In this document: piece after piece, positions 2,886 through 54,686 of the stretch
Position numbering within the stretch: position 1 is the first letter of the stretch
Layout: each line of letters starts with the position of its first letter
Source: an uncultured Candidatus Saccharibacteria bacterium
GTDB taxonomy: Bacteria > Patescibacteriota > Minisyncoccia > Phycocordibacterales > UBA12088
Length of the DNA: 60,166 nucleotides
Reading direction: 5' to 3'
Assembly (NCBI GenBank): GCA_964409035.1
Contig: CAYPBQ010000005.1
Coordinates: 1-60,166, forward strand
Translations under genes and position numbers: made by a program
The notes under the pieces: model-generated
The model's database searches: none
What the model saw: the letters and a program-made list of their open reading frames with translations, nothing else
What the model was told of the DNA's origin: nothing

Positions 2886-2920
2886 AACACCCTCCACATG
2901 TTGGCCACCACGAGCATACA

Positions 2921-2967
2921 CCAAAACAAAACACACGCCCAGGGTATGGACGTGTGTTTTGTTTTGG
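2921..2967 (-). terminator. rplL terminator (17-bp stem)
   Basis: CCAAAACAAAACACACG - 13-nt loop - CGTGTGTTTTGTTTTGG, directly after the rplL stop. Confidence 0.7.
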
Positions 2968-2975
2968 TGACATTA

Positions 2976-3386: not shown

Positions 3387-3407
3387 ACTGTCTTTAATAA
3401 ATTAGTA

Positions 3408-5480: not shown

Positions 5481-5549
5481 AAAAAATATTGTTAGTACAA
5501 GCCGATTGTAGCCAAGTATGGCGTGTATGGCAATAGGCTCAAGTATTAA

Positions 5550-5585
5550 AAACACAAAACCGCCCGAAAGGGCGGTTTTGTGTTT
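5550..5585 (-). terminator. Terminator of the giant surface-protein gene
   Basis: aaacacaaaaccgccc-gaaa-gggcggttttgtgttt, a 16-bp stem with a T-rich tail. Confidence 0.75.
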
Positions 5586-5615
5586 GACCTTTTGATCCTA
5601 GGTCTACCAATAAGA

Positions 5616-24951: not shown

Positions 24952-27900
24952 GTAGCAATCGAAAAGGATAGTGAGTATCCTTCCGCATCGTGGCGATACG
25001 GCTGTTCAGTTTCAGAATATATAATATTGATGACCTTAGTTGTTTTCATTATCTCAGATTGATACCGTTCAATAAACGCGCGTGTCTTTAGTTCCGCACA
25101 AACAGTAAGTGACGCGCTATCAAATGGAGATAGTCCCTTCTCTTTTCTTGTGTCTTGGATTGCGCGCAACAAGTCTCGGAGTATTCCTTCTTCAATAAGA
25201 ATTTCATCAAGCGTAGTATCAAGAGAGACTTCCTCACCCTCCTTCCTGTCGTATATCACCTCTTTTACGTTCACCTCTTCCTTTATCAATTCTGGATATA
25301 TTGCGATATCGCTATGCAACAACAACGCCCTCAGTGGTTGTCGTACTTTTATACCAGCACTTGCGCGTAGTTTAAGCGCGCGTGATACCACTCCCCGAGT
25401 AGCCTCCATCGTGGTGATAGCCTCTTGATTATCACCCTCAGCTTGTGGCCAACTTGCAAGATGAACGCTTAGCGGACTCTCTTTGGTGCGAACCTTTTGA
25501 TACACCTCTTCAGCAATAAATGGTGTAAATGGCGCCATTACTTTTGCGAGTGTCTCAAGCACGTACCGAGTGGTTGCAAGCGCATACATTGTGTCTTCAT
25601 CAGAATCACCCTTATACCTATCTCGTGAACGACGTACATACCACTGTGATAAATCAGCAATAAATTCTCGTATCGCTCGGGAAGATTCAAGCAGTCTATA
25701 TTCATCAAGAGCCTTTGTGGTAGTAGTGATTAGCCGAGAAAGTGTTGCTAGTATCCACACATCAAGTACGTGTGGACTCTCAAATGGATTCACCGTTGTT
25801 TCCTTTGCGTAAAGCTCATACAAGGCAACGGTATTTATAAGTGGGTTAAATACTTTTTTAGTTATGTCATCAACGGTACTTTGATCAAAATTTTTGGAGT
25901 CACCAGGTTGATTGACGCTATACATAAACAACCTAAGCGCATCCACCCCATGAAGCGCCATCATCTCCCATGGATTTACAATATTTCCAAGAGATTTTGA
26001 CATTTTCTTTCCTTTATCATCAAGGATGTGTCCCAAACAAATGACGTTTTTATACGCTCTGCCGCGGCCCAATATTACTCCTACCGCATGGAGGGTATAA
26101 AACCACCCCCTCGTCTGGTCGATTGCTTCTGCAATATAATCAGCAGGAAACCCGTGAGTATCTACCCATTCTTTATTCTCAAATGGGTAATGGTCTTGGG
26201 CGTAAGGCATGCATCCGCTATCAAACCACACGTCCATTACTTCCTTTACCCTTGTAAGGGTGGTTCCATTATCGCTATAGAGTATGACATCATCTACATA
26301 CGGGCGGTGTAAATCTATCTCGTATGATTCATTGTATGGAAGTGGGACAAACGAAACCTCTCTCACTTCTGCCGTTTTGGGAAAATCTCCTTCGTCGTAC
26401 GCCTTCTTTGAGCGATCCTCGCTATACCCTTTTGAAATAGCAAGACTCATCCATACTACATCCGCGTGGGTAACCACAAGAATAGACTCATTTTCATGTT
26501 CGTTGTTCCTCTGTGTTAAAAAGGAGCCTACTCGAGTGCGAACATCTCTGATGGTTTCCCCACCCTCTGGCGCGTGGGTAAATGACTTATGGTGAGGAAT
26601 TTGCGCATCCATTTCATGGATAGGTCTTCCATCAAATACTCCAAAATTTGTTTCTCGTAAGCGTTCATCAATTATTGCAGCAGGGAGTCCTAACGCTTCT
26701 GTGATAAGCGCGGCAGTTTCTAGCGTTCGAGGAAGTGGTGATGTGTAGACTTTTGTTATACCGAGGGAGCGCAATTCTTCAATGCGGGCTAGTACTTGTC
26801 TCCTTCCTTCATCAGTAAGGGTATTGTGTTCATCAATACTACTATTGAGATAGTGGTTAACGTTTGACTCTGCTTCTCCGTGTCGCATGACTACAAATTT
26901 ATTCTTCGGAGGCTTCATGTGTGCCCTCATGGTTTCAATAGAATCAACCACGAGTCGCTCTTTATTATCTGATGATACCCACACTGGTAGTGGTGTGCCC
27001 CAGTATCGCTCGCGTGAGAGTGCCCAATCTTTTACTCCACTGAGCCACTCGCCAAATCGCCCATCTTTGATATGGGATGGCTCCCAATTTATTTTTTGAT
27101 TTTCTTCAACAAGGGCGTCGCGAAGTGTAGACATGGCAAAATACCATGAGTCATGCGCGTAATAGATTATTGGCTGTTTACATCTCCAGCAAAATGGATA
27201 CGTGTGAGTAACTTTTTCTTTTTTAAATATACGCTCACCTAGTTCGCGTAATATTGTTTTTTCTGCTTCAGAAAAAACATCTTTTTCCTTTGCTACAAGC
27301 CCAGAGAGTGGACCAGTACCTTCAACAAATTTTCCACTCTCATCAACAAGGTGAAATTTTGGAAGCCCTGCTGTAGTACCGAGCTCAAAGTCGTCCTGAC
27401 CATACATTACGGCAGTGTGTACTATGCCAGTACCATCAAGTGTAGTAACAAATGATGCATCATATACTTTATATGCTCTTTCCAATCGTTCTTTTTGATC
27501 TTCTGGCAACAAGGTACCTAGGTATGGAAACAGTGGTTCATACGAAGTACCGACAAGATCCTTACCCATTAGGGTACGTATCACTTCTGTATCTTCTCCA
27601 AGCACCGCTATGCGATCTTTTGCTACGTAATAATACTTGGTGTCCTTTTTAACTTTTACATATTCAACTGAATCGTTTACTGCAAGCGCGACATTGCCGG
27701 GCAATGTCCATGGTGTCGTTGTCCAGGCAAGTAAGTAAGTATCATCTTCCCCCACCACCTTAAACGCCACATACACTGACACATCAGAGACCTCGTCATA
27801 TCCCTGCGCGAGCTCATGACTTGATAACCCCGTCCCACAACGAGCACACCATGGCACCACTTTGTAATCCTTATATAAAAGATTCTTCTTGTCTGCTTCT

Positions 27901-28406
27901 TTTACCACGTGCCACACTGACTCGATGTAATCACTTTTATAGGTGACATATGCATCATCAATATCTACCCAATACCCTATACGCTTGGTAAATGCTTGCC
28001 ACTCACTCGCGTACGTCCATACACTTTTTTTACACTCTTCATTAAATGCCGCGACACCGAATGTTTCTATGTCTTTTTTGTTTTTCAGACCAAGACGCTT
28101 TTCTACCTCAAGCTCAACAGGTAGACCATGTGTATCCCATCCACCCTTTCGGCGAACATGATATCCCTGCATGGTTTTATATCGAGGGATAATATCTTTA
28201 AATGATCTAGCCTCAATGTGGTGTATACCTGGGCGGCCATTTGCGGTTGGCGGACCTTCATAGAAAATAAATTCACCCCTTGGGGAGTCTTTCTCAAGTG
28301 TTTTTTTGAATACCTCGTACTCGTCCCAAAAAGCGAGTATGTTGCTTTCCCGTTTTGCTGCCTCGCCAGAGGCATATTCTTTCATAAAATCGTTATAGTC
28401 TTTCAT
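24948..28406 (-). CDS. ileS: Isoleucyl-tRNA synthetase (type 2) with an inserted histidine-phosphatase domain
   Basis: PPTANGRPGIHH, WCARCGT, WTTTPWTLPGN, WGTPLPVW, DVWFDSG and KMSKSLGN. An insert of about 190 aa carries VMRHGEAESN, SPLPRTLETA, RLRETNFG and VVTHADV. Confidence 0.95.
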   Translation of the reverse strand: MKDYNDFMKEYASGEAAKRESNILAFWDEYEVFKKTLEKDSPRGEFIFYEGPPTANGRPGIHHIEARSFKDIIPRYKTMQGYHVRRKGGWDTHGLPVELEVEKRLGLKNKKDIETFGVAAFNEECKKSVWTYASEWQAFTKRIGYWVDIDDAYVTYKSDYIESVWHVVKEADKKNLLYKDYKVVPWCARCGTGLSSHELAQGYDEVSDVSVYVAFKVVGEDDTYLLAWTTTPWTLPGNVALAVNDSVEYVKVKKDTKYYYVAKDRIAVLGEDTEVIRTLMGKDLVGTSYEPLFPYLGTLLPEDQKERLERAYKVYDASFVTTLDGTGIVHTAVMYGQDDFELGTTAGLPKFHLVDESGKFVEGTGPLSGLVAKEKDVFSEAEKTILRELGERIFKKEKVTHTYPFCWRCKQPIIYYAHDSWYFAMSTLRDALVEENQKINWEPSHIKDGRFGEWLSGVKDWALSRERYWGTPLPVWVSSDNKERLVVDSIETMRAHMKPPKNKFVVMRHGEAESNVNHYLNSSIDEHNTLTDEGRRQVLARIEELRSLGITKVYTSPLPRTLETAALITEALGLPAAIIDERLRETNFGVFDGRPIHEMDAQIPHHKSFTHAPEGGETIRDVRTRVGSFLTQRNNEHENESILVVTHADVVWMSLAISKGYSEDRSKKAYDEGDFPKTAEVREVSFVPLPYNESYEIDLHRPYVDDVILYSDNGTTLTRVKEVMDVWFDSGCMPYAQDHYPFENKEWVDTHGFPADYIAEAIDQTRGWFYTLHAVGVILGRGRAYKNVICLGHILDDKGKKMSKSLGNIVNPWEMMALHGVDALRLFMYSVNQPGDSKNFDQSTVDDITKKVFNPLINTVALYELYAKETTVNPFESPHVLDVWILATLSRLITTTTKALDEYRLLESSRAIREFIADLSQWYVRRSRDRYKGDSDEDTMYALATTRYVLETLAKVMAPFTPFIAEEVYQKVRTKESPLSVHLASWPQAEGDNQEAITTMEATRGVVSRALKLRASAGIKVRQPLRALLLHSDIAIYPELIKEEVNVKEVIYDRKEGEEVSLDTTLDEILIEEGILRDLLRAIQDTRKEKGLSPFDSASLTVCAELKTRAFIERYQSEIMKTTKVINIIYSETEQPYRHDAEGYSLSFSIAT

Positions 28407-42774: not shown

Positions 42775-44043
42775 TTAGTAGGTTACTTTGTCTACTTGAT
42801 TGCCAAATTGATCGAGAAGCACAAGCTCTTCCCTGCTTTTTCTCCACAACTCATCTGAACGGTTTAGATATATTCGCCACTCGTCTTTCCAAAAATCTGA
42901 GTCTGAAAGATGCTTATCTATGCACGCGTTGTAGTTGATGTTGTTTTCTACAAAATACCTACACGCGAGCGATATAGTGGTTGGGATTTCAGATGAAAGT
43001 GGCGCTTTGCATGATGAAAGTCGTGATACATATGTCCTGCATGAATCATCAGTGAGAGGGATTTTGCCATATGCCTCAAATTCATCCTCTGGGTCTGGGC
43101 ACGAAGTAGTAATCGAGGGCTTAAAGGTGTAATAGTTACGCAAGTAACCCATGCACTTATTCTCTCTGAAGCTCTTTTGAGTAAGTGGCGACATACCCGT
43201 CACAATGGTAAGGGTATCTTTCGGCTTCATTCTAAGCTCGTCTGTGGTGCCAGATCTACCAAATCTAAATAGCGGCGACACTGTATCAAGAGTAATCACG
43301 TTATTGGTGATATTACTCTGCACCTTCCATCCAGAAAGGATTACATCCGAGCCTGCTTTGTCGTCAATTTCTATTTCTATGTATTCATCTTTAGCGAGTG
43401 CATTATTTGCGCTTGCTTTCTTTAATACAACCTTCCCGGCGTAAAATGATGTGTTTCCTTCATTTTTGGTTCCATTATCACTTGTCGAGGTATCATTTAT
43501 CGGCTCATTACTAACAATACCTGGCACAACTGATCCAGAAATAATTGCATTCATTGCCTTTCTTGTTGAAGGGCCGAGCATGCCGTACCCAGTAGTGCTT
43601 GCATCACCACTGGTCACAATACCCTTGGCTGATTGAAAACGTTTGAGCGCGGTAACTGATAACTCACCAAAATACCCGCTAAACACTCCTTCAGGGTAGT
43701 ACCCAAGCTCATTAAGAATGAGCTGCAAATTTTTTACATCCTCACCAGTTGAGCCATATCCGATTGCTCGTGTAAATGCGGTGTACTCACGCATCAGCAC
43801 GAGCCCTGATGGACTTCCTCCTGTTGCAGTAGAGAGTTGTGTAGATTGATCCTTTTGCGCTTTGGCAAGGGTTTCTCTAAGTGCTTTGAGTTGCTCTTGC
43901 AAAATAAGTATCTCCTGCTCTTTTTGTTGGATAGATCGCTGGATATCGCTAATGATTGTTTGTCCAAATGCAAATGGTACAAGAGTGGTTATTGCAATCA
44001 CACACACTCCTATAATGGATAGGTAATATACACTTTTTTTCAT
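42775..44043 (-). CDS. Secreted peptidoglycan-binding protein with lamin-tail-like (LTD) and Cys-rich region
   Basis: Signal peptide, a coiled coil, PG_binding_1 (GSTGEDVKNLQLILNELGYY...ALKRFQSAKGI), then EYIEIEIDD...LSGWKVQS and ELVLLDQFGNQVDKVTY with 8 Cys between them. Confidence 0.8.
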   Translation of the reverse strand: MKKSVYYLSIIGVCVIAITTLVPFAFGQTIISDIQRSIQQKEQEILILQEQLKALRETLAKAQKDQSTQLSTATGGSPSGLVLMREYTAFTRAIGYGSTGEDVKNLQLILNELGYYPEGVFSGYFGELSVTALKRFQSAKGIVTSGDASTTGYGMLGPSTRKAMNAIISGSVVPGIVSNEPINDTSTSDNGTKNEGNTSFYAGKVVLKKASANNALAKDEYIEIEIDDKAGSDVILSGWKVQSNITNNVITLDTVSPLFRFGRSGTTDELRMKPKDTLTIVTGMSPLTQKSFRENKCMGYLRNYYTFKPSITTSCPDPEDEFEAYGKIPLTDDSCRTYVSRLSSCKAPLSSEIPTTISLACRYFVENNINYNACIDKHLSDSDFWKDEWRIYLNRSDELWRKSREELVLLDQFGNQVDKVTY

Positions 44044-44096
44044 ATAACCCAGTATAGCAAATAATCTTGCCTTACTTGGTGTGTACTGTGTATAGA

Positions 44097-44468
44097 CTAC
44101 TTTCTGAGTGAGTCTCTAATCTGCTTCAATAGCTCAACCTCTTCACTTGGTTTAGCAGGTGCTTGTGGGGCCTCCTCTTCCTTTTTCTTCATTGCGTTAA
44201 TTGCCTTAATTAGCACAAACAATGCAAATGCAACAATTACAAATACGATAGTTGCCTGAATAAACTTGCCGTACGCAAGTGTTGCAGATCCAACAGTAAA
44301 TGAAAGTCCGCTAAAGTTAATTCCACCAGTGAGTACACCAACAATCGGCATCAAAATATCACCCACTAGTGAGTCAACAATTTTACCAAAGGCACCTCCA
44401 ATAACGACACCGACTGCTAGGTCAATAACATTACCTCGCATCGCAAACTTCTTAAATTCTTCAATCAT
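44097..44468 (-). CDS. mscL: Large-conductance mechanosensitive channel
   Basis: [41 protein letters not shown]. Confidence 0.95.
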
Positions 44469-44526
44469 GTAGATGGTACTAGCTATTAATTTGCCTCGAT
44501 AGTAGCATATAAATACTATAGTATCT

Positions 44527-44934
44527 ATGTTTTTGGACCAAATAATTAAAGGAAATAAACAAGCATTTATCCCCTACTCCCTTGCGGGTACGGCACTTTT
44601 TAGTATAGAGCTATTCTCCCTCTGGATACTTATTGACTACCTTGGTGTCCCATATCTATACGCCACCGGTCCTACATTTTTTATTGCGGTATCAATACAC
44701 TATTATCTATCAAAAAAATTCGCCTTCGGGAGGCACCGTGGTAAAAACCGATTTTCCTATGTAAAATTTTTACTCATTGCCTTTAGTGGCGCAATTGCAG
44801 TTACTACAGTGATTTACTTATTGACTGAACACACCCACATCAATCCACTTAGCGCACGTGCATTACTGGCAACACTAACCGGTATCGGCACATTCTTTCT
44901 TCATAAACACATCACGTTTAAGCCTACTCATTAG
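44527..44934 (+). CDS. GtrA-family membrane protein
   Basis: 135 aa, 4 TM helices, and a YYLSKKFAF motif typical of GtrA-like proteins. Confidence 0.75.
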
Positions 44935-44935
44935 A

Positions 44936-45436
44936 CTATTGGGTTCGATGCCGGCGTTTTGGACCCAATTGCCTACCAAACTGCATATCAAATGGTGCTA
45001 CCGCCATTAGCCACGCTACCATTCCTTGCCCCTTCCATTTTTCTATAAAGTGCTCTCTCTCGTAGCGAATTTTTGGACCATGCCATGGATCGCGTAGCGT
45101 GATGTATGTAGGCCCATATCCTGATACCACTGCATAATGTTCATCTTGAGAAAGTGAACGCTCAATAAACCTTACAATCACAGGTATTTTTCTATGAAGA
45201 AAGTAGCCGATTTCTTCTATGTGTGCAGATTCATTCACATACACATAAAGACCATGACGCCTCGCTTCTTCTTCCATCGCAGAACGTAAGGTGCCGACTG
45301 AGTAATTAGTACCCATCCATCTTGCTAGTCGCTTTTCGCTATCATCAATCCCCCAATACGCGAGCGCCATTTGGAGCGATGCGGCTCCGCAGGTATATAC
45401 GGTGTCTTGTTTAAAGTACGGTATAGATATTCTCAT
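44936..45436 (-). CDS. Peptidase C39-like (papain-fold) protein
   Basis: YFKQDTVYTCGAASLQMALAYWGI carries the catalytic-Cys context of C39-like domains, and HYAVVSGY supplies the His. Confidence 0.75.
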   Translation of the reverse strand: MRISIPYFKQDTVYTCGAASLQMALAYWGIDDSEKRLARWMGTNYSVGTLRSAMEEEARRHGLYVYVNESAHIEEIGYFLHRKIPVIVRFIERSLSQDEHYAVVSGYGPTYITLRDPWHGPKIRYEREHFIEKWKGQGMVAWLMAVAPFDMQFGRQLGPKRRHRTQ

Positions 45437-45470
45437 ACATTACAAAGCTATGTGCATATAAAACACTACA

Positions 45471-46166
45471 TCACCACGGTCTGTATATCTTAAACAATTT
45501 AACACTGCCTACTGCAATACTAATAGTTGCGACAAGTGCGATGGTGAGAAATCCTTCTTCATTACTGATGGTATGAATGTCAATTACATATGGCACAAGT
45601 AACGCTCCAACTGTCGCCACCGCGACAACCATTGTCTTGACTCGAAGCGAAGAGAGAAATACTTTGCGTACATTTCCACCCTCGGTAATTTGTGCTACCT
45701 CATAATTTGCCCTAAATGCCGGAAACCATGTGGTAAAAAGTCTATCGTGTACCGAAACAGACTCTGATCTGACTGAAGAGATCATTTTTTTATAGTATGT
45801 TTTTGCAAGATAAATATTAATAATCCCTGCGCTGTACCATCCTAATAGTACACACATGATAGTTACTATAAACACACCAAGTCCGCTCACCTGGGAAAGA
45901 ATGGTGAGGATAACAATAAGTGTTGTGCCAGGGAAAAAATTACCAACAAGGTATGTGCCTTCAATTAAAATAGAAACGAATGCAGCAATATATAGATGTG
46001 TTCCACTTGCGGTTGAAAGGTACGCAACAAGTTCTTCTACTCCTGGTATGGTAGCGCTGAGTATTCCCATCGTTCCGTAGGTGATAAGTCCCACTCCAGA
46101 GACAATCCATGTCATTGCGGAGTAAAATGATTCTTTGTTTGAAACTTTGCCTATATTCCCTTCCAT
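45471..46166 (-). CDS. Polytopic membrane protein, DedA/VTT-like
   Basis: 231 aa with about 6 TM helices. ILIEGTYLVGNFFPGTTL resembles the DedA signature. Confidence 0.6.
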   Translation of the reverse strand: MEGNIGKVSNKESFYSAMTWIVSGVGLITYGTMGILSATIPGVEELVAYLSTASGTHLYIAAFVSILIEGTYLVGNFFPGTTLIVILTILSQVSGLGVFIVTIMCVLLGWYSAGIINIYLAKTYYKKMISSVRSESVSVHDRLFTTWFPAFRANYEVAQITEGGNVRKVFLSSLRVKTMVVAVATVGALLVPYVIDIHTISNEEGFLTIALVATISIAVGSVKLFKIYRPW

Positions 46167-46235
46167 TTGGTAACTATATCAAATTACCTCCTTTTTTCTC
46201 CACTTCGTTTCGCAAAATCGTAGACCGCCTCCGCC

Positions 46236-46260
46236 GTTCGATTCCCGTACTCACTCCAAA
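46236..46260 (+). pseudogene. Decayed tRNA 3'-half fragment (T-loop plus acceptor-like), inverted relative to tRNA-His
   Basis: GTTCGATTCCCGTACTCACTCCAAA compared with the tRNA-His 3' part GTTCGATTCCCAGTAGTCGCCCAAA: an 11-nt exact core and about 22 of 27 positions overall. It has no matching 5' half or T-stem. Confidence 0.5.
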
Positions 46261-46304
46261 CGGCAACAACCGAAACGCATTCGCGTATTCGGTCTGCCGA
46301 TTTG

Positions 46305-46377
46305 GGCGACTACTGGGAATCGAACCCAGATCAGGGGCTCCACAAACCCCTGTGTTGACCATTACACCATAGTCGCC
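46305..46377 (-). tRNA. tRNA-His (anticodon GTG) with encoded G-1
   Basis: Manual fold: G-1, acceptor GCGACTA/TAGTCGC, U8, D-stem GTGT/ACAC, anticodon arm GGGGT-TTGTGGA-GCCCC, T-arm CTGGG-TTCGATT-CCCAG, discriminator C. CCA is not fully encoded. Confidence 0.9.
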
Positions 46378-46432
46378 ATGCAAAATACTTTATATACACA
46401 GTCCCCTACTGCTCATGATTTATAGCAGACTC

Positions 46433-46468
46433 CAGACAAAAAGGAAACGCCCACTCTTTCGAGTGGGC
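46433..46468 (-). terminator. Terminator after spoVR
   Basis: gcccactc-gaaa-gagtgggc followed by gtttcctttttgt on the minus strand. Confidence 0.7.
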
Positions 46469-46474
46469 TCCCTC

Positions 46475-47875
46475 CTAGGTGTTTGTTATTCTAAATTTTC
46501 CGTTTTCCGTTCTCAGTAGCTTTTTGAATGCTCCGACCACCGTCTCAAGGCAGACATCACCACCCCACAAAGTTGAGAGGTGGACCAAAGTCTTCTCGGC
46601 CTGTGCCACTTCGAGATCCCGTCCGTCGTGCTCGTGGACGAGATAGAGGGTACGCGTCCCGCCGTAGTTCGCGTCCTTTATCTTGATAACCGGGAAGCTG
46701 TTCGACCCGATCTGCGCGAGCAGGTGGTTCTTCACGCTCTGCCAATGGTCCTCGTCGCTCACCTCCGTAACGACCAAGTGGTCGCCACGAGGCTTGTAGG
46801 CGAAGAGGTCGAGCTCGTGCATCAACTCGGGCGTCAGGAAGCGGCGTAGGAACGAGACGTCACGCTCCGCCTCACGGATCTGCATCAGCTTGTCCCTTGC
46901 TTCCTTGCTCTCGACCCCGCCGAAGCGCTTCTCCAGCATCGTCCAGAGCACAAAGCCCACATGGTAGGGATTGAGGCCGCCCAGATGTGGGCAGACCACC
47001 TGGTTGTGCCGAACCAAGAACTCCATGTGAAGCTCTGGCGGCAGCTCGATCGCGTTCATGAGCTTGTGGTGCCAGAAGCTGGCCCAGCCCTCGTTCATGA
47101 TCTTGGTATCAATCTGGGGCAGGAAGTAGCAGGTCTCCTCATCGACGATGGTGAGGATATCCCGCTGCCAGGCAGCGAGGTCCTTGTTGTTGTCACGAAC
47201 AAACAGAAGGATGTCCTGATCGGGCTCCAGCGGGAAGCGTGATAGATCGGGCGGATTGTGGACCGCGGTCTTGTGGATGGCGGCAAAGGGATCGCGCCTT
47301 GGCTCCGCCAGATCCCACAGCCGCTCACGCTGACCCTCAGTGTTGAGCTTCTTGATCGCCTGGTTCCGCGTACGATTGAAGGCCAGCGCGTGCGCGGCAT
47401 CAAGGAACAGCTCGACCGCGTCCGCGCCTATAGAGGGATCCTCCATGTAGCGGCGGATCCGATCGGCTCTGGTCTTGAAGGAGGCGATCGTCTCACTGGC
47501 GCGCGTGGCGCTGGTGAAGGTGAAGTTGTTCTTGAAGAAGTCGTTGTGCCCGTAGACATGCGCGATCGTTAGGATTTGTAGGCACAGGCTGTTGTCGCGC
47601 ATGAGGTATGCAAGGCAGGGGTCGGAATTTATCACGAGCTCATACGGGAGGCCTGTCACCCCGTAGTCGTACATCGTCTTGGTCTGCTCGTATGCCTTGC
47701 CATAAGACCAGTGCGGATAGTGCGAGGGCATGCCGTGATATGCCATGTAACCGAGCATGGCATTTTGATCGCAGACCTCAAACTCCTGACGGTAACAGTC
47801 GAGCCCGTATTCGGCGACCTTCACCTGAATCCGCTTGTCCCATTGCTCGAGATCCTTAAGACTCCATTCAGACAT
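46475..47875 (-). CDS. spoVR: SpoVR/YcgB family protein
   Basis: 466 aa from ATG 47875, with AAGGAG 7 nt upstream. It has family-typical AHVYGHNDFFKNN and IMNEGWASFWH motifs. Confidence 0.9.
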   Translation of the reverse strand: MSEWSLKDLEQWDKRIQVKVAEYGLDCYRQEFEVCDQNAMLGYMAYHGMPSHYPHWSYGKAYEQTKTMYDYGVTGLPYELVINSDPCLAYLMRDNSLCLQILTIAHVYGHNDFFKNNFTFTSATRASETIASFKTRADRIRRYMEDPSIGADAVELFLDAAHALAFNRTRNQAIKKLNTEGQRERLWDLAEPRRDPFAAIHKTAVHNPPDLSRFPLEPDQDILLFVRDNNKDLAAWQRDILTIVDEETCYFLPQIDTKIMNEGWASFWHHKLMNAIELPPELHMEFLVRHNQVVCPHLGGLNPYHVGFVLWTMLEKRFGGVESKEARDKLMQIREAERDVSFLRRFLTPELMHELDLFAYKPRGDHLVVTEVSDEDHWQSVKNHLLAQIGSNSFPVIKIKDANYGGTRTLYLVHEHDGRDLEVAQAEKTLVHLSTLWGGDVCLETVVGAFKKLLRTENGKFRITNT

Positions 47876-47937
47876 GCTGATTCTCCTTGTAGCCACCCAT
47901 GATGAGTGGCTTCTGTCGGCAGAGTATACTAAATGTA

Positions 47938-47977
47938 TAAAAAGAAAAGAGAGAGTCGGACATTGTCCAACTCTCTG
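47938..47977 (-). terminator. Terminator after yhbH-like gene
   Basis: gagagt-t-ggaca-atg... hairpin (stems GAGAGT/ACTCTC and GGAC/GTCC) followed by cttttcttttt on the minus strand. Confidence 0.55.
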
Positions 47978-48000
47978 AATGCGCTACCATCTTCTTATGT

Positions 48001-49203
48001 TTACGTTCGGGCTGTATCCTTTTTGATCATACTAGCCACGGCAGGCCAGACGTCCCTTCGGTGCGTGATCAACGCCGTATGGAAATTGTCACGACTCAGC
48101 GCGCGGAACCGCTCGAGCATCGAGCTTTCATAAGAAGCACCCCCATTCGGCTTGATCTCGCCGTAGCCAAAGAGGTTGGCGATGTTGCATAGCGCCTTAG
48201 CGCTAGCCAAAGTCTCCTCGTTGTCGCTCTCGAAGTTATCGCCGTCCGAGCAGTGGAATGCATAGATGTTCCAATGCTCTGGATGGAATCGCTGCTCGAT
48301 CACCTCGAGCGCCTTCTTGTAGCCCGACGAAATCATCGTGCCGCCCGATTCACCCTTGTGGAAGAACTCGTCCTCCGTCACCTCGCTGGCCTCGGTGTGG
48401 TGGCCGATGAAGACGACCTCTACCTGATCGTAGCGTGTACGGACGAACTGATAGAGCAGGAAGAAGAAGCTCCGCGCCAGATACTTCTTTAATCGATCCA
48501 TGGAGCCCGACGTGTCCATGATGCAGATGACGACGGCGTTACTCTCTTCCCGCGGCTCGTCGACCAGACGGCGATAGGTCAGATCCTCCTTGCGGAAGGG
48601 AAAGCTGTTATCGCTTTCCTCATTTTCGGGCCCGTCGGTCTCATCCTCCGTGTCGGTCAGGGGCATGCCCTGGGCGATCTGGCGCCGGATCTTGGACATG
48701 ATGGTGCGTTTGCGATCGAGATGCACACGAATGCCGGCCTTGCGGTAGCCCTTGCGCTTCGAAGTCCGCTCGGCCAGCGCTTCCTTGAGGATCTTGCGTT
48801 CCATGTCCGGGAGCTCCAGATCCTCGAACATGATGTCGATCAGCTCGTCGAGTGTGATCTCGGTCTCGTAGATGTCCTGACCCGGCTCATTACCGGCCGG
48901 CCCCTGGCCCTTCTCGCCCTGTCCGGCCGGACCGACGATCTGACCGGGCTCGGTGTCACCTTTGCCGGTGCCGACACCACCTGAATTGGTGCCGAAAGTG
49001 AAGCGGTACTCCTTCACCCCTCGGATCGGCACCTTGATCACCTTGCCTCGATCCCGCCCTATGATGCTCTCCTCGGCGATAATGTCGGCGATATTGTCCT
49101 TGAGCGAGCGTCGCAGCTTCTCCCGATGGCGCTTGCGGTCGCCGGCACTGCGATCAGATCGTAGCGCCTCCGTTTCGTTGTAAGGTCGAAAGACAGTAGT
49201 CAT
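48001..49203 (-). CDS. yhbH: YhbH/YeaH (DUF444) family protein with vWA-like MIDAS motif
   Basis: 400 aa from ATG 49203, with GGAGG 6 nt upstream. RHREKLRRSLKDNIADIIAEESII, and a DxSxS motif in VVICIMDTSGSM. Confidence 0.88.
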   Translation of the reverse strand: MTTVFRPYNETEALRSDRSAGDRKRHREKLRRSLKDNIADIIAEESIIGRDRGKVIKVPIRGVKEYRFTFGTNSGGVGTGKGDTEPGQIVGPAGQGEKGQGPAGNEPGQDIYETEITLDELIDIMFEDLELPDMERKILKEALAERTSKRKGYRKAGIRVHLDRKRTIMSKIRRQIAQGMPLTDTEDETDGPENEESDNSFPFRKEDLTYRRLVDEPREESNAVVICIMDTSGSMDRLKKYLARSFFFLLYQFVRTRYDQVEVVFIGHHTEASEVTEDEFFHKGESGGTMISSGYKKALEVIEQRFHPEHWNIYAFHCSDGDNFESDNEETLASAKALCNIANLFGYGEIKPNGGASYESSMLERFRALSRDNFHTALITHRRDVWPAVASMIKKDTART

Positions 49204-49246
49204 TAGAGGCCTCCTATGGTTCAACTTTTTTGAGCATATATCTTTA

Positions 49247-49292
49247 TAAAAAATTGACAAGAATGAGCCACACAAGTTTCCTTGTGTGGCTC
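49247..49292 (-). terminator. Terminator after prkA
   Basis: Perfect 12-bp stem gagccacacaag-gaaa-cttgtgtggctc, followed by attcttgtcaatttttt on the minus strand. Confidence 0.65.
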
Positions 49293-49391
49293 AAATTGAT
49301 CAGCGGAGTGTTCTTGCGCTCCACCGAGACCATCGAGGCTTTTCACGCCTCAATAATCTCTCAAAAAATTGTTGTTGCTGGAAGGAACTCA

Positions 49392-51314
49392 TCAGTCCTT
49401 CCAGAGGTGATTGGCAGCATACTTCAGCACCGTATCGATGCTGTCATCATTGTAACCCTGCTCGAGGAGATTCTCGACCATAGCCGAGTACTTCTGCCGC
49501 TGCTCCTCGTCACGGGTACGCGACTTGGTGATGATGCGGCTGATGTCGCGAACAGAGTTCATCAGCTTCTTCTCAATGGCCTCCTTCAGCGGCTCGTAGG
49601 CGGAGTAGCTTAGCGTCTCACCGCGACGCATACCAGACCACAGGTAAGCGATCACCTCCTGGCGGAAGCCATCGGCGGCCGGGCCGATGATCGCGATCTG
49701 CTCCTCGATGGATTTGAGGAACCCCTCGTCGGGCTGCATCTCCTCCTTGGTCACGTGATCCTTGACCTTGGTCTTGGTCACGTAGGCCTCGGCATTGTCG
49801 AGGTAGTTCTGGAACAGGGTCTCTGCTTGATCCTTGAAGCTGAAGACGAAGGCCTTGGTGATGTCCTTCTCCAAGAGCTCCAGATAGACCTTGTGGAGCG
49901 TGTCCTGGAGAAACTCCAGATGCTGCCGCTTCGTGTCCTCGGAGAGGTCCGTCTCCTTGACCATGCCGATCAACGCCTCACGGACATTGATGGGATGGAT
50001 GGAACCGCCGTTCTGCGTGAGAGCCGTGTCGAGGGCCTTCATGACAAAGCGCGTGCTGATGCCGAACAGGCCCTCCCGCTTGGTATCTTCACGAAGCTCG
50101 TGCGCCGTGATCTTCTTGGGTCGGCCCTTTTCTAGTACCTCCTCCCCGTTGTAGATCTTGAGCTTGGTGAGGAGGTCGCACTTCCCGGTGGGCTCGAGCC
50201 GAGTGAGGATCGCAAACATCGAGGCAATCTCGAGCGTGTGCGGCGAGATCTTGAGATCAAAGCGGGACCGCTTGAGGAACTTCCGATAGATCTTCACCTC
50301 TTCCGAGAGGCGGAGATTGTACGGCACCTTGACGACGACGATACGGTCGAGAATGGCCTCGTTGGTATGGTCGGCCTTGAACCGCTGCCACTCCGCCTCG
50401 TTGCTGTGCGCGACGATGACTGTGTCGACGTAGATTGTGCCATGCCGGCCGGGTGCCGGGACCATCTTCTCCTGTGTCGCCGTGATCATGGTGTGGAGAT
50501 ACTCGGTCTCGTTCTTGAAGACCTCGATGAACTCCACCATGCCTCGATTGCCGACGTTGAAGGCGCCGTTCAGCTCCAGCACCCTCGGATCACCCTCGGA
50601 AAAGCGGTCGAGCTTGCTGATGTCCTCCGAGCCGATCAGGACCGAGGTGTCCTGGTTGTTGGGATCGACCGGCGGGACGACACCGATGCCCTTACGGGCC
50701 CGGATCGAGAAGGACATCGTGCAGATCGGCATCTTCTCGTACTGACCGGCGAACTCGTTCATCAGGCGGTGCCTGGTGATCGGATCAATGTCTCCCTCGA
50801 TCCTCACGCCCAGCATCTCCTCGAACGCGCTCCGAAGGTGGCGCGGGATGAGGCAGAGCGGATTGCAATAGTTGGGCGAGCCTTCGATCACATAGATCGG
50901 GTCGAGATCCTCGAGGCCACGCTTCAGGCGGTCGACCAGCGAGCTCTTTCCTGAGCCGACCGGCCCCATAAGATAAAGGACTTGGCGAGCCTCCTCGCCG
51001 CCCATCGCGGAAGAGTGGAAATAGCGTACGATCTTGTCGAGCGTGCGCTCCATACCGAAGAACTCGTCCTTGAAGAACCCGTACGTCTTCGGGCTCTGAT
51101 CCCCGAAGACGCGCTTGGCGCGCGGGTCGGCCTCGACATCGACACTCTCCGTGCCGCGATCAACGATCATGTCGTACATGCGCTTGTGCGAGAAGTCGGC
51201 GAGCCGTGGGTTCGCCTTGACCAAGTCCAGATAGTCCAGCAGCGTGCCGCGCCAGTGCTTCTTCTGCCGTTCCTGGCGATCTTGCTTAATCAGTGTCGCG
51301 TAATCACTAGACAT
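49392..51314 (-). CDS. prkA: PrkA/YeaG family serine protein kinase (AAA+ N-domain plus kinase-like C-domain)
   Basis: 640 aa with Walker A LMGPVGSGKSS and FFGMERTLDKIVRYF. The overall layout resembles E. coli YeaG (from memory). GGGAG lies 6 nt upstream of the ATG. Confidence 0.92.
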   Translation of the reverse strand: MSSDYATLIKQDRQERQKKHWRGTLLDYLDLVKANPRLADFSHKRMYDMIVDRGTESVDVEADPRAKRVFGDQSPKTYGFFKDEFFGMERTLDKIVRYFHSSAMGGEEARQVLYLMGPVGSGKSSLVDRLKRGLEDLDPIYVIEGSPNYCNPLCLIPRHLRSAFEEMLGVRIEGDIDPITRHRLMNEFAGQYEKMPICTMSFSIRARKGIGVVPPVDPNNQDTSVLIGSEDISKLDRFSEGDPRVLELNGAFNVGNRGMVEFIEVFKNETEYLHTMITATQEKMVPAPGRHGTIYVDTVIVAHSNEAEWQRFKADHTNEAILDRIVVVKVPYNLRLSEEVKIYRKFLKRSRFDLKISPHTLEIASMFAILTRLEPTGKCDLLTKLKIYNGEEVLEKGRPKKITAHELREDTKREGLFGISTRFVMKALDTALTQNGGSIHPINVREALIGMVKETDLSEDTKRQHLEFLQDTLHKVYLELLEKDITKAFVFSFKDQAETLFQNYLDNAEAYVTKTKVKDHVTKEEMQPDEGFLKSIEEQIAIIGPAADGFRQEVIAYLWSGMRRGETLSYSAYEPLKEAIEKKLMNSVRDISRIITKSRTRDEEQRQKYSAMVENLLEQGYNDDSIDTVLKYAANHLWKD

Positions 51315-51394
51315 TGATTACTCCCTAATGTGGCTTTTGCCACATTGCCCCACCCACAATGGGGAGGCTCTAACGCAGAGAGTATAGAAATATC

Positions 51395-51419
51395 ATTATC
51401 TGTCAAAGTGACAGATAAT
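51395..51419. promoter_or_regulatory. Perfect 11-bp-arm palindrome at the island/host junction
   Basis: ATTATCTGTCA-AAG-TGACAGATAAT, 4 nt after the response-regulator stop. On the minus strand it contains TTGACA, 14 nt upstream of TATACT. It could be the regulator gene's terminator or an operator. Confidence 0.4.
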
Positions 51420-51422
51420 AAG

Positions 51423-52223
51423 TTATTGCAACTTCCCCTTTCTTTTTAAGATAACAAGAATTCTGTCGAGTACCTCCTGAGGAGTAACCATGGCTTTTAT
51501 CAAAAAATCTTCTGCCCCTGCTTTGGTGCACTCCTCAATCTCGTGCTCTTGCCCTAAGTTTGAAAACATAATCACCGACACATCCTTATACCGAGAATCT
51601 GCTTTTATTTTCTTTAAGACATCGATACCGCTAATGCCAGGCATGATAATATCGAGGAGTATTAGATCAGGCACCTCCTTTTCAAGTAGCGCAAGTGCGT
51701 TTTCTCCATCTACCGCAACAGTTACCGAGCAACCCTTTTTCTTTAGATGCATTGCTGCAATTGATGAAAGAAATGGATCATCTTCAACAATAAGCAATCG
51801 AGCCAAAGGATTTGAAAGTACCGATGATGTGGTTGCGGTGTTCTTTGGATCAGTGTTTGGTGATATATATTTATGCACCTTTTCTAGTACTTCTGCAGGA
51901 CTAAACTGTGCCTTGATGATGTAATCCTTCACTCCCATATCCAAAATGTGTCGTATCTCAACTGGTTGTCCTGAGTTAGAAATGACAATGACTGGTACCT
52001 CCTTTATATCTTCATCCGAACGGATTTTTTCCAATGTTTCGTACCCATTCATTTTTGGCATTACCATATCTAGCAATACCACGTCTGGCTTTACTTCTTT
52101 AAGTTTTGCTACTCCCGCTTCTCCATCCTTTTCCCAGTAGGTCTCGTACCCTTCGCTTGTGAGATGATCACGTAGGAGTTCACCGAGCACTTCTTCGTCT
52201 TCAATGATAAGAATTTTTTTCAT
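51423..52223 (-). CDS. Response regulator with two receiver (REC) domains and no output domain
   Basis: Two REC units, KKILIIEDEE...VVLLDMVMPKMNG...IIKA and RLLIVEDDP...LILLDIIMPGISG...LIKA. I prefer the ATG at 52223. Confidence 0.9.
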   Translation of the reverse strand: MKKILIIEDEEVLGELLRDHLTSEGYETYWEKDGEAGVAKLKEVKPDVVLLDMVMPKMNGYETLEKIRSDEDIKEVPVIVISNSGQPVEIRHILDMGVKDYIIKAQFSPAEVLEKVHKYISPNTDPKNTATTSSVLSNPLARLLIVEDDPFLSSIAAMHLKKKGCSVTVAVDGENALALLEKEVPDLILLDIIMPGISGIDVLKKIKADSRYKDVSVIMFSNLGQEHEIEECTKAGAEDFLIKAMVTPQEVLDRILVILKRKGKLQ

Positions 52224-52285
52224 ACTGTTTGATATCGCTTTTTGAAAGTATATCATCAATTTAATATTGCGATGCTAGCTTGAGA

Positions 52286-53338
52286 TTACTGTGATAACGG
52301 TATAGGAAGTGAGAAGTAAAAAGTAGTCCCCTCACCTTCTTTACTTTCAAAGCTAATGGTACCCCCATGCTTATCAACAATATTTTTTGCAACAAATAAT
52401 CCAAGCCCCGTTCCATCAGTTTTTGCTTTAAGCGCATTGTCTGCTCTAAAAAACTTTGTAAATATGGCAGATTTTTGATGCTCTGGAATCCCAATACCAG
52501 TATCAGAGACAGATACTACAATATGGTTACTATTACGAGTTGCTCGCACCATCACTTTTCCTCCTGATTTAGTATACGAAAGCGCGTTTTCAATTAAATT
52601 TTGAAGTACTGCGCGAATCTTTTCTGAGTCAATTTTTACAGGTGGAAGTTCCTGCTGTGGTGGCTCAAACTCAAGTGTCACATGATGTTGTGATACATAA
52701 CCAGCAAAATCTAGTAGTACCGATTCAATTACATGTTCAATATGAACAAGCGTGAGTTCGTATTCTAATTTTCCAGATTCAATTCTTGTAACTACCAACA
52801 TTTTGTTGATGAGATTTATGGTTCGCTCTGTACTTGCGTATGCTTTGAGAATAAGGCTTCGCTGATCTATGGTGAGATTTTCAGAAGAATCATCACACAT
52901 AAGCGACAATGCCCATTTAATTGCAGAGAGGGGTGTGCGCAACTGGTGGGCGGCAACTGAGATAAATTCAGATTTTACCTTATCCAATTCAAGCAGCCTT
53001 GTATTTGCTTCAGTTAACTGCGCCTCTTGCTGGGATAGCAACCGATTGCTTGCATCAAGCTCTTCTATTTTTAGATGCAACTCTTGCGTGCGCTCCACCA
53101 CTTTTCTTTCCACACTTTCTTTTTCGCTCTGTAGTTCTGAAAGAAGTGCGAGTACCTTTGCGTGCAATTCAGAAAACTCTTTTGAGCTAATATCAAAAGA
53201 GTGGTCAAGCAGTCGCCTGTCTTGATCGTACCCTTCATAGGTGGTACTTACCGCCTCAAGTAGTTGCATACATTCCTCAGGGATATGAACATCTGCACCT
53301 ACATATTTTTTTAATTGGCGCTCAAGAAGGTGGTGCAT
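52286..53338 (-). CDS. Soluble sensor histidine kinase (coiled-coil, HisKA, HATPase_c)
   Basis: H-box ISVAAHQLRTPLSAI, N-box NLIENALSYT, G1 VSDTGIGIP and G2 GTGLGL. No TM segment. Confidence 0.92.
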   Translation of the reverse strand: MHHLLERQLKKYVGADVHIPEECMQLLEAVSTTYEGYDQDRRLLDHSFDISSKEFSELHAKVLALLSELQSEKESVERKVVERTQELHLKIEELDASNRLLSQQEAQLTEANTRLLELDKVKSEFISVAAHQLRTPLSAIKWALSLMCDDSSENLTIDQRSLILKAYASTERTINLINKMLVVTRIESGKLEYELTLVHIEHVIESVLLDFAGYVSQHHVTLEFEPPQQELPPVKIDSEKIRAVLQNLIENALSYTKSGGKVMVRATRNSNHIVVSVSDTGIGIPEHQKSAIFTKFFRADNALKAKTDGTGLGLFVAKNIVDKHGGTISFESKEGEGTTFYFSLPIPLSQ

Positions 53339-53340
53339 AC

Positions 53341-54492
53341 CTATACTTCCCTCAGGGTGGTTATGGTCATCGTCTGATTATGAAGCTGGCACTGCCGCTC
53401 AGTTGGTGTGGTTGGGCTAATCTCTCCATAGGAGTAAAACCCGATCATGTTTGCTCGTTCGCCCACCACCTCTCTTACAGCTTCAGTCTCATCTTCAACT
53501 CTATCTTTTAATACGAGCTTCCTTCCTATACAGCTTACCAAAACGGCTAGTTCTGCCTTGCCCTCCCCTAGTGATACCGTGCTCATACTTGCAGCACCGG
53601 AGGCGCCATCTATAAGGCGGTCAAAGTTTGCCTTCATAAAACGAGCAACAACACCAACTGGCATATCCCCCGCAAAAGTAACGGACTGTGTTGCCTCATC
53701 AACACCAAGCACTGTACGAACAACCTCCACCTCAACACCAAGATCGGTGGTGATTTTTAAGCTAAGCGGAAACAATAGCCCGCTTGCGGGTAAATCTTTA
53801 GCTAATTCACCAAGATATTCTTTATAAAGAACAAGCGCTGGCTTGTCATCCAATTCATACAATACGTTTCCTTGTGCTTTGGTTATCGTACGAGAGACAC
53901 CAAATGAATCCCACCCTCCTAGTGAACCGTATCCTACTTTAATAGACTCACCATAAAACCCAACACATACAAGCCTCTTTTGTGCTGCCATAGTATCAAG
54001 CCCCACCATAGTCTCTTTGAACCGAGGTCCATCACCTACCAACCCTCCGGTTACAGAAACGGCTTGTGGAAGTTCTGCCAACAAACCTTTTACAAGCGCG
54101 GTACCGTTAACAAATAATCCATCTGAGAATATCATTACATGCACAAGCCCCTCTTTAGGTAGCGCCTTTGCAAGTGTATTGCCCACCTCCTCGCTGTGGT
54201 CTGCTGAATCTATGGTTGCCTCTACGCACTGTATTGTGGTTTTTTCAAATGCGATTGCAGATAGCACTAGCGCATCATCTGATACCTCGGTATCAATAAT
54301 TTCACCCGCTGTTGTTGCGCTTACTATTTTTGCTGATGGATACCACGCTCTAATCTCTTCAAAAAGAGTTTTGTCTTTTAATGCCTCATTGCCACCAAAC
54401 ACCAACACCAGTGTGGGTGGTAAAGGAAGGGGTGTGTTGGTAAAAGTAGTCCAACCATTTTGCTTAGTCCATTTTTTTTGTTCTATGTGCAT
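53341..54492 (-). CDS. FIST-domain signal sensor protein
   Basis: 383 aa. The length and pattern (LVLVFG..., VTGGLVGDG, FYSYGEISP) are typical of FIST_N plus FIST_C. Its stop lies 2 nt before the kinase ATG. Confidence 0.8.
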   Translation of the reverse strand: MHIEQKKWTKQNGWTTFTNTPLPLPPTLVLVFGGNEALKDKTLFEEIRAWYPSAKIVSATTAGEIIDTEVSDDALVLSAIAFEKTTIQCVEATIDSADHSEEVGNTLAKALPKEGLVHVMIFSDGLFVNGTALVKGLLAELPQAVSVTGGLVGDGPRFKETMVGLDTMAAQKRLVCVGFYGESIKVGYGSLGGWDSFGVSRTITKAQGNVLYELDDKPALVLYKEYLGELAKDLPASGLLFPLSLKITTDLGVEVEVVRTVLGVDEATQSVTFAGDMPVGVVARFMKANFDRLIDGASGAASMSTVSLGEGKAELAVLVSCIGRKLVLKDRVEDETEAVREVVGERANMIGFYSYGEISPTTPTERQCQLHNQTMTITTLREV

Positions 54493-54602
54493 ACAAGCAT
54501 GTTATCTATATACATATAGCATACCCCATTTCGGTGTTTTTTTAGAATGAATACATCCTATTGAAAATAGTGCTCGGGCAAGGCATACTACAGCAGTCTT
54601 AT

Positions 54603-54686
54603 GCCCAGGTGGTGAAATTGGTATACACGCTACCTTGAGGTGGTAGTGGCCGCAAGGCTGTGCAGGTTCAAGTCCTGTCCTGGGCA
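54603..54686 (+). tRNA. tRNA-Leu (anticodon GAG), long variable arm
   Basis: Manual fold: acceptor GCCCAGG/CCTGGGC, anticodon arm CTACC-TTGAGGT-GGTAG, variable arm TGGCCGCAAGGCTG, T-loop TTCAAGT. Confidence 0.9.

Follow-up and report, generated by a model that had tools for sequence, protein, structure and literature searches.

A block of three genes, referred to here as the island, was found between a response regulator gene and the tRNA-His gene in a 60,166-nt stretch of contig CAYPBQ010000005.1. This stretch is called the window, and all coordinates refer to it. The island occupies 46475-51314 on the minus strand and encodes PrkA, YeaH and SpoVR. Its genes and the features that border it are listed below, with the GC content at third codon positions (GC3).

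51423..54492, minus strand: FIST, histidine kinase and double-REC response regulator cassette (by Pfam), GC3 0.32-0.38, native
49392..51314, minus strand: prkA/yeaG, 640 amino acids, GC3 0.83, AAA+ ATPase with a kinase-like C-terminal domain
48001..49203, minus strand: yeaH (DUF444, VWA-like), 400 amino acids, GC3 about 0.74-0.76
46475..47875, minus strand: ycgB/spoVR, 466 amino acids, GC3 0.77
46304..46376, minus strand: tRNA-His (GUG), from ARAGORN and Rfam (RF00005, 65.2 bits), native boundary marker

The three genes are adjacent and co-directional in the order prkA, yeaH, ycgB, and they are the only cargo between the response regulator and the tRNA-His. The cassette, in which the response regulator with two REC domains covers 51423-52223, is directly upstream of the island and runs in the same direction, and the island sits on the 5' side of the tRNA-His. 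The names and coordinates given in the initial annotation (spoVR, a yhbH-like gene and prkA) were right, with near full-length Pfam matches. PrkA matched PF08298 (E=9.3e-144, residues 24-378, profile positions 2-356 of 358) and PF06798 (E=5.6e-77, residues 382-632, profile positions 1-255 of 255), and its residues 11-635 matched PDB entries 9xip, 9xiq and 9xir, "Serine protein kinase" (E=3.4e-85). SpoVR matched PF04293 (E=1.7e-136) and, in its C-terminal domain, PF24755 (E=1.6e-13). YeaH matched PF04285 (E=1.9e-121, profile positions 9-417 of 418) over residues 39-419 of an open reading frame (ORF) extended to an upstream TTG. The start of yeaH is the ATG at 49203 and not this TTG at 49275, because its N-terminal MTTVFRPY is matched in the alignment of all orthologues, and an ORF extended to the TTG contains the prkA terminator. 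No solved structural relatives of YeaH and SpoVR were found; PrkA has one. All the family motifs quoted earlier are present in the three proteins: the Walker A motif of PrkA (GxxGxGK[ST]) is GPVGSGKS at residue 117, the MIDAS-type DxSxS motif of YeaH is DTSGS at residue 230 of the 400-residue protein, and SpoVR has AHVYGHNDFF at residue 105 and NEGWASFWH at residue 261.

The mean GC content of the window is 44.7%, and the 1-kb windows across 46001-51000 reach 0.53-0.60 compared to 0.39-0.49 elsewhere. At 100-nt resolution, GC is above 0.5 from ~46500 to ~51300 and dips to 0.35-0.49 solely in the two intergenic spacers. The island genes have a GC content of 0.57-0.59 and a GC3 of 0.74-0.83, compared to 0.435±0.024 and 0.387±0.061 in the host baseline, which consisted of the 50 other window ORFs of at least 90 amino acids. 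GC content at second codon positions (GC2) is unchanged in the island genes and, therefore, the compositional difference lies in silent sites. Tetranucleotide usage of the island correlates with that of the host at r=-0.24, while other 4.8-kb windows give r=0.88±0.07. Compared with L004 and L005, two of the three Geminicoccaceae-like prkA-yeaH-spoVR loci (L004, L005 and L006) called donor-like here, the island gives r=+0.74. The GC-rich block in a low-GC genome that had been reported was thus borne out by the 1-kb, 100-nt, per-gene and tetranucleotide analyses, and no other window gene has such a composition, although native genes of this kind had been raised as a possibility. The drop to lower GC at the ends of spoVR and yeaH was also real by GC3, which is 0.43-0.60 over the final 40-60 codons of spoVR and 0.60 over the final 20 codons of yeaH. 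Replacement of these tails by other sequence was considered and rejected, since the alignment lengths equal those of the donor-like proteins; the spoVR tail is as long as in the donor-like copies and divergent in sequence. The low-GC C-terminal codons are, therefore, homologous, fast-evolving and poorly conserved tails.

The large-database search was made with PrkA only; for YeaH and SpoVR, comparison was limited to the genes next to PrkA matches. Relatives of PrkA fell in two tiers, with three sequences at 94-97% identity and a large set at 78-88%. The best PrkA from outside the candidate phyla radiation (CPR) has 87-88% amino acid identity. Contigs of the second tier have 67-70% GC, proteobacterial neighbours (TctABC, PutA and HpcH) and a tight prkA-yeaH-spoVR operon, and the 88% cluster includes NCBI proteins labelled Geminicoccaceae. 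The gene order in L004-L006 is that of the island. In a neighbour-joining tree of 120 PrkA sequences with 30 bootstrap replicates, the CPR copies were monophyletic in 30/30 replicates and nested among Geminicoccaceae-like sequences, with L004 as their sister in 29/30. YeaH and SpoVR have 70-77% amino acid identity to the donor-like copies. These results support a single cross-phylum transfer from a GC-rich Geminicoccaceae-type alphaproteobacterium because the CPR PrkA copies form one clade nested in Geminicoccaceae-like alphaproteobacterial sequences. As for the recipient, orthologues of two native flanking proteins, FIST and a lineage-specific membrane protein of 231 amino acids, are named Candidatus Kaiserbacteria, Candidatus Paceibacterota, Yonathbacteria or "Patescibacteria group". 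The window also encodes large PG-binding, LTD and DUF11 surface proteins and a B12-dependent ribonucleotide reductase, as is typical for Parcubacteria. Because of these orthologue names and this gene content, the host is taken to be a Kaiserbacteria-like member of the Patescibacteria (CPR). The horizontal acquisition proposed by the initial annotation, between tRNA-His and a two-component operon, is supported by composition and by the PrkA phylogeny. Protein phylogenies had been suggested for all three genes; the PrkA tree groups its copies with those of Geminicoccaceae-like alphaproteobacteria rather than with those of the host lineage, and YeaH and SpoVR were placed by identity only.

The island recurs at the same site in independent assemblies. 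From the window species, a Logan contig of run SRR14271331 (L001) is 100% identical to window 43569-54648 and crosses both junctions, and a Logan assembly of a second run, SRR14271335 (L178), carries the SpoVR-tRNA-His side, identical to the window. A sister species, with ~83.5% nucleotide identity to the window over the island and flanks, is represented by five datasets (L002, L003, L173, L174 and L175). These are Logan contigs from other runs, a 71.7-kb contig of an NCBI metagenome-assembled genome (MAG) (L173; GCA_964562615.1, contig CAZLUD010000003.1), another NCBI metagenome contig and a JGI contig. All five have the same arrangement of response regulator, prkA-yeaH-spoVR and tRNA-His, and the adjacency of tRNA-His to the island is identical in them and in L178. 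Several independent assemblies thus cross the junctions, and misassembly, which had been raised as a concern, is excluded. A third island-bearing lineage (L176; Logan ERR14369873), with a PrkA at 94% identity, shares the long-spacer architecture of the island.

Sequence comparison with the sister species provided an estimate of age and selection. The native neighbours have a synonymous divergence (dS) of 1.2-1.9 and ratios of nonsynonymous to synonymous divergence (dN/dS) of 0.02-0.08. The island genes have dS values of 0.53, 0.82 and 0.91 and no stop codons, and their dN/dS is 0.03 for prkA, 0.105 for yeaH and 0.10 for spoVR. Because dN/dS is 0.03-0.10, these data show long-term functional retention, with purifying selection as strong as in native genes. 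Differences at 4-fold sites are 0.32-0.44 in the island and 0.48-0.53 in the flanks. GC3 steps down from 0.88-0.93 (donor-like loci) through 0.88 and 0.81 (L176) and 0.76-0.83 (window) to 0.71-0.80 (L002). When synonymous changes were polarised with L004 and L005 as outgroups, the ratio of GC-to-AT to AT-to-GC changes was 65:2 for the window lineage, 96:4 for L002 and 46:6 among shared changes. The polarisable sites start as G/C in 709 cases compared to 21, which mostly explains the net flux, and the per-site rates are similar. The analysis shows that the composition of the island is out of equilibrium and is decaying independently in each lineage. The initial annotation had called the island freshly acquired, and this did not hold. 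The same island lies at the same site in a sister species with a flank dS of 1.2-1.9, L176 shares the remodelled architecture, and GC3 has fallen from a donor-like value of ~0.90 to 0.71-0.83, each lineage having a strong net flux from GC to AT. The island appears to be an old acquisition that has been domesticated, arrived before the sister species split and is still far from ameliorated.

The island also differs from the donor-like loci in its spacers. In the CPR clade, the prkA-yeaH spacer is 188-229 nt and the yeaH-spoVR spacer is 115-125 nt, with GC of 0.36-0.46, in contrast to donor-like spacers of -4 to 51 nt with GC of 0.69-0.97. The window has an AT-rich spacer of 108 nt between the response regulator and prkA, followed by spacers of 188 nt and 125 nt. 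The hairpin terminator for each gene and the AT-rich spacers with a -10-like box before prkA and spoVR, which had been described earlier, are present among the following elements (UTR, untranslated region).

51379..51406, minus strand: predicted promoter-like element upstream of prkA, TTGACA-N14-TATACTCT, within the response regulator-prkA spacer
51328..51368, minus strand: two predicted 5'-UTR hairpins before the prkA ribosome-binding site (GGGAG), in all three lineages
49265..49292, minus strand: terminator-like hairpin after prkA, 13-bp stem, -24.2 kcal/mol, z=-6.75
49233..49260, minus strand: promoter-like element upstream of yeaH, TTGTCA-N16-TATGCT, from a consensus scan
47950..47976, minus strand: terminator-like hairpin and T-run after yeaH, 12-bp stem, -18.6 kcal/mol, z=-5.1
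47891..47928, minus strand: -10-like TATACT box and predicted 5'-UTR hairpin upstream of spoVR
46449..46468, minus strand: terminator-like hairpin after spoVR, 8-bp GC-rich stem and T-run, the low-coordinate edge of the island

A 28-nt block upstream of prkA, TTGACAGATAATGATATTTCTATACTCT (51379-51406), is identical in the window, L002, L003 and L173 despite ~50% diverged synonymous sites, and its TATACTCT box is also retained in L176. The TATACT boxes are at 51381-51386 upstream of prkA and at 47923-47928 upstream of spoVR, where L002 has TATACA. The promoter-like element of yeaH is kept in L002 and L003, but not in L176. In the 5'-UTR of prkA, L176 has other stem sequences in the same two-hairpin layout (-31.1 kcal/mol, z=-5.95). 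In the terminator-like hairpin of prkA, L002 carries a compensatory C:G-to-T:A change and L176 has a different stem at that location; the yeaH hairpin has a wholly different stem in L002 and L003 (-19.9 kcal/mol) at the same position beside a conserved CTTTTCTTTTTATA (T-run). The 5'-UTR hairpin of spoVR, AGCCACTCATCATGGGTGGCT, is maintained in L002 as CCCACTCATGATGAGTGGG through paired changes, and the spoVR terminator of L002 has another stem that is equally strong (-21.4 kcal/mol). The three terminator-like hairpins of the island range from -18.6 to -24.2 kcal/mol, with z values of -4 to -6.8. Since structure is conserved while sequence is replaced, these comparisons argue that the hairpins are functional, and the operon appears to have been re-punctuated into three transcription units. 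A scan of the spacers and window with Rfam returned the tRNA only and no family for the 5'-UTR hairpins. No sigma-54-type promoter was seen at the window island. A sigma-54 promoter was also considered for the donor-like loci and rejected as too weak: a single 2-mismatch GG-N10-GC box lies before prkA of L004, and L005 and L006 have none.

We consider it very probable that the prkA-yeaH-ycgB operon was transferred once into the ancestor of a small Kaiserbacteria-like clade and was then kept, ameliorating, while its regulatory DNA was rebuilt. Other explanations were weighed against this one. A chimeric assembly or binning contamination, in which a proteobacterial fragment was misjoined to a CPR contig, would agree with the abrupt change in GC at both ends and with the absence of mobility genes. 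Its probability is negligible, however, since Logan assemblies of two runs show the junctions at 100% identity and the junctions recur in the sister species in five further datasets, including the 71.7-kb MAG contig. In addition, the island and flanks have co-diverged, and the spacers are host-like in composition, unlike those of the donor-like loci. The strong purifying selection and the GC3 that is still high after speciation could instead be read as signs of native, vertically inherited CPR genes with a GC-rich codon usage maintained by selection or biased gene conversion. This is highly implausible, as the nearest outside relatives are alphaproteobacterial (87-88% amino acid identity) with the CPR clade nested among them, and the tetranucleotide signature fits the donor-like loci. 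Also, other Patescibacteria with the FIST-histidine kinase-response regulator cassette have no triad there, among the matches listed, and silent sites show a net flux to AT, which means that the composition is not being held in place. A phage or plasmid with the triad, which jumbo phages and rhizobial megaplasmids do encode, might have delivered the island, with the vector lost later. PrkA homologues are encoded by Ralstonia jumbo phage RsoM2USA, which also encodes a SpoVR-family protein, by Thermus phages and by several huge uncultured phages, many alphaproteobacterial plasmids or chromids carry prkA, and the 77%-identical sister lineage described below shows other insertions near tRNA-His (a toxin-antitoxin pair and a 17-nt 3' remnant). 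We regard such delivery as improbable, because, in the collections searched, phage PrkA reaches at most 33% identity and plasmid PrkA at most 40%, compared to 87-88% for chromosomal Geminicoccaceae-like copies, and no integrase, att-like repeat or vector gene is left at an island that lies 5' of the tRNA. The absence of a visible integrase, transposase or flanking direct repeat noted by the initial annotation was confirmed: no integrase, transposase or other mobility gene was found among the ORFs and Pfam matches between the response regulator and tRNA-His, and no boundary direct or inverted repeats or att-like copies of the tRNA-His 3' end were found at the island.

As for the timing of the transfer, the island could be younger than the species split, having entered one lineage and spread to its sister or sisters by homologous recombination through the conserved flanks, or having been homogenised by gene conversion. 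The three island dS values lie below those of the flanks, the 4-fold differences are also lower, and the GC3 of 0.71-0.83 exceeds a simple estimate of amelioration under the full flank divergence. However, the adjacent response regulator (dS 1.22) and the 231-residue membrane protein (1.32) show no dip in divergence and, therefore, no recombined tract. The differences in dS among the three island genes fit gene-specific constraint better than one later transfer, the flank dS is near saturation, where estimators behave differently at skewed base composition, and the lineage-specific GC-to-AT changes number 65 and 96 compared to 46 shared ones. A younger island is, therefore, rather doubtful. 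The lower dS may reflect slower evolution of silent sites, an estimator bias caused by skewed composition, or an island that is younger than the split and was moved by recombination.

An early single transfer remains the preferred reading, and several observations besides the low island dS (0.53-0.91, below the flank dS of 1.2-1.9) count against it. No empty site, with the response regulator directly beside tRNA-His, was seen in any relative and, therefore, the absence of the island is inferred from distant genomes with altered synteny. A scan of GTDB genomes with FIST gave few CPR sisters among the matches listed and none with the response regulator next to tRNA-His, a scan of JGI metagenomes with the response regulator gave nothing above ~42% identity, and, in the nearest outgroup lineage (FIST at 84%, membrane protein at 77%), the contigs end short of the junctions, with no empty site seen. 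In more distant Patescibacteria (FIST at 71-79% identity, among the matches listed), the cassette is followed by unrelated genes. The synteny comparison that had been proposed thus found the sister species occupied at the same site but did not yield an empty interval. The host assignment uses orthologue names for flanking genes and not a marker-gene phylogeny. The promoter calls are at consensus level only, and the 14-nt spacing between TTGACA and TATACT upstream of prkA is suboptimal for sigma-70. A host-wide TATACT consensus was also considered and rejected, since the hexamer occurs 30 times in the window compared to 49 expected. Finally, the biochemistry of PrkA is contested, with kinase, ATP-dependent protease and neither all proposed (PMC9512850, PMC13001217).

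According to the preferred reading, the operon would have moved once from a GC-rich Geminicoccaceae-type alphaproteobacterium into the ancestor of the clade, landing between the terminator of the FIST-histidine kinase-response regulator operon and the tRNA-His promoter. The module would have been kept working, its three frames intact and strongly constrained by purifying selection in two or more species, while its silent sites drifted slowly to the low GC of the host. The compact donor operon, whose proteobacterial relatives are under sigma-54, NtrC and (p)ppGpp control, would have become three separately punctuated genes. prkA and spoVR would each have gained an AT-rich spacer, a -10-like box, a 5'-UTR hairpin and a GGAG-type ribosome-binding site, yeaH would have gained a promoter-like box and a ribosome-binding site, and every gene would end in an intrinsic-terminator hairpin. 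The module, made up of an oligomeric AAA+ ATPase that carries a kinase-like domain and two partners, one of the VWA/MIDAS type and one of the SpoVR family, may reprogramme metabolism or proteostasis in growth arrest.

By homology, the triad is the conserved PrkA/YeaH/YcgB stress and starvation module. Its genes have mutual cofitness values of >0.7 in six bacteria and usually form one operon (10.1101/072470). The three-gene operon of Rhizobium etli is (p)ppGpp- and RpoN-dependent (PMC3188799), and YeaG of E. coli is required for adapting to sustained nitrogen starvation (PMC4664914). PrkA has been called a Ser kinase, and the B. subtilis protein was reported as an ATP-dependent protease (PMC9512850). 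PrkA of B. anthracis was assigned to the clade III AAA+ ATPases and showed negligible activity as a kinase or protease (PMC13001217). Most plausibly, the CPR lineage would use the module for growth-arrest or starvation adaptation and for survival in nutrient-poor or host-free periods. No hint of sporulation was seen in the window. In a MAG of Saccharimonadia, a different CPR class, a "newly acquired spoVR" was taken as sporulation (PMC11484240); the gene name was probably misread there.

The island agrees with the proteobacterial prkA-yeaH-ycgB operon (E. coli yeaGH and ycgB; R. etli CH02817-CH02815) in families, order, orientation and motifs, and its proteins are 70-88% identical to alphaproteobacterial (Geminicoccaceae-like) copies. 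It differs from the compact single operon (Price et al.; RT-PCR in R. etli) in its 188- and 125-nt spacers, each with a terminator-like hairpin and a promoter-like box, a layout variant comparable to the split yeaGH / ycgB of E. coli. The PrkA/YhbH/SpoVR proteins of Bacillus are of the same families, and island PrkA has the same AAA+ and kinase-like architecture as PrkA of B. subtilis and B. anthracis (PMC9512850, PMC13001217), but at ~40% identity to Bacillus PrkA the island is far closer to the alphaproteobacterial copies. With classic tRNA-associated integrative islands, it shares an atypical composition, phylogenetic incongruence and a patchy distribution, but it has no mobility gene and no att repeats and does not lie at the tRNA 3' end. 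Its position 5' of tRNA-His does not fit the classic route, in which elements integrate at the 3' end of a tRNA gene. Detected horizontal gene transfers into Patescibacteria are mostly within the phylum, with Pseudomonadota donors in 3 of about 131 events (PMC12455944). The island shares the foreign composition, incongruence and patchiness of those events, but it carries a whole regulatory and stress module instead of single genes for metabolism or transport. Compared to known compositional islands, it is shared by sister species yet strongly unameliorated. It is, therefore, a known kind of system, a compositional island with a known module, and its notable features are persistence through speciation with incomplete amelioration and the rebuilding of its regulation.

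The surroundings of the island vary in other lineages. In L176, the sequence upstream of the TATACTCT box (L176:1-216) has no match to the response regulator C-terminus of the other lineages, and the upstream neighbour of the island may be different there. In a 77%-identical sister lineage (L171:1-870; Logan SRR29748427), a 17-nt remnant of the tRNA-His 3' end (16/17 identical) lies upstream of the orthologue of window 45471-46166. It is followed by the conserved spacer between the tRNA and the membrane protein and by an inserted pair of antitoxin and ParE-like toxin genes, and no intact tRNA-His was detected on this contig. The tRNA-His neighbourhood looks like a recurrent site of insertion and rearrangement in the clade. 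In the sister-species contig L173, the record misses PrkA and YeaH (L173:4590-7953, equivalent to window 48001-51314) and lists unannotated antisense ORFs instead. Pseudogenisation of the two genes was considered and rejected, as the tblastn alignment is uninterrupted and the in-frame translation has no stop codons. The missing genes are evidently a gene-calling artefact. Gene finders trained on a low-GC host seem to mis-call GC-rich acquired genes, and such islands may be under-reported in CPR MAGs.

Elsewhere in the window, the FIST N+C protein (53341-54492, minus strand) is strikingly conserved and has relatives at 50-57% identity across many phyla, with at least 596 confirmed matches (loci L007-L086 among them). 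These include Acidobacteriota, Bacteroidota, Planctomycetota, Pseudomonadota, Omnitrophota and even archaeal-labelled contigs, usually with a histidine kinase after it. A class I tRNA synthetase of 1152 amino acids (24948-28406, minus strand) is apparently an isoleucyl-tRNA synthetase by its domain set and has an unusual architecture, in which a histidine-phosphatase domain (PF00300, residues 505-662, E=1.4e-33) splits the catalytic domain. The only other tetranucleotide outlier is 4841-9680 (r=0.60 to background), which consists mainly of an ORF of 1186 amino acids (5616-9176, minus strand) for a giant PG_binding_1 protein with a GC2 of 0.53 and normal GC3. This outlier probably reflects biased or repetitive protein sequence and not foreign DNA. 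At 2852-3836, the overlapping ORFs 2852-3172 (minus strand) and 3147-3836 (plus strand) have a GC3 of 0.62-0.66. Because this high GC3 goes with a low GC content at first codon positions (0.30-0.37) amid normal overall GC, they look like wrong-frame or antisense shadows of a real gene and not like a second island.

The island provides a clean example of cross-phylum transfer in a reduced CPR genome, with a complete and enigmatic stress module as cargo, and its donor-like, intermediate (L176) and more ameliorated (L002) stages are open to comparison. It hints that some Parcubacteria invest in the control of starvation and growth arrest, and it nominates Geminicoccaceae-like bacteria as ecological neighbours or hosts. 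A bolder idea, which we think unlikely, is that this epibiotic CPR lineage has the Geminicoccaceae-like donor as its physical host or partner and that the captured triad is an autonomous starvation or dormancy programme for host-free periods. If so, the lineage would be a natural minimal background for finding the targets and biochemistry of PrkA/YeaH/YcgB, because the module is strongly selected in a genome where regulators and possible substrates are very few. The change from a sigma-54-type operon to three sigma-70-style, individually terminated genes would then be a worked example of regulatory domestication.

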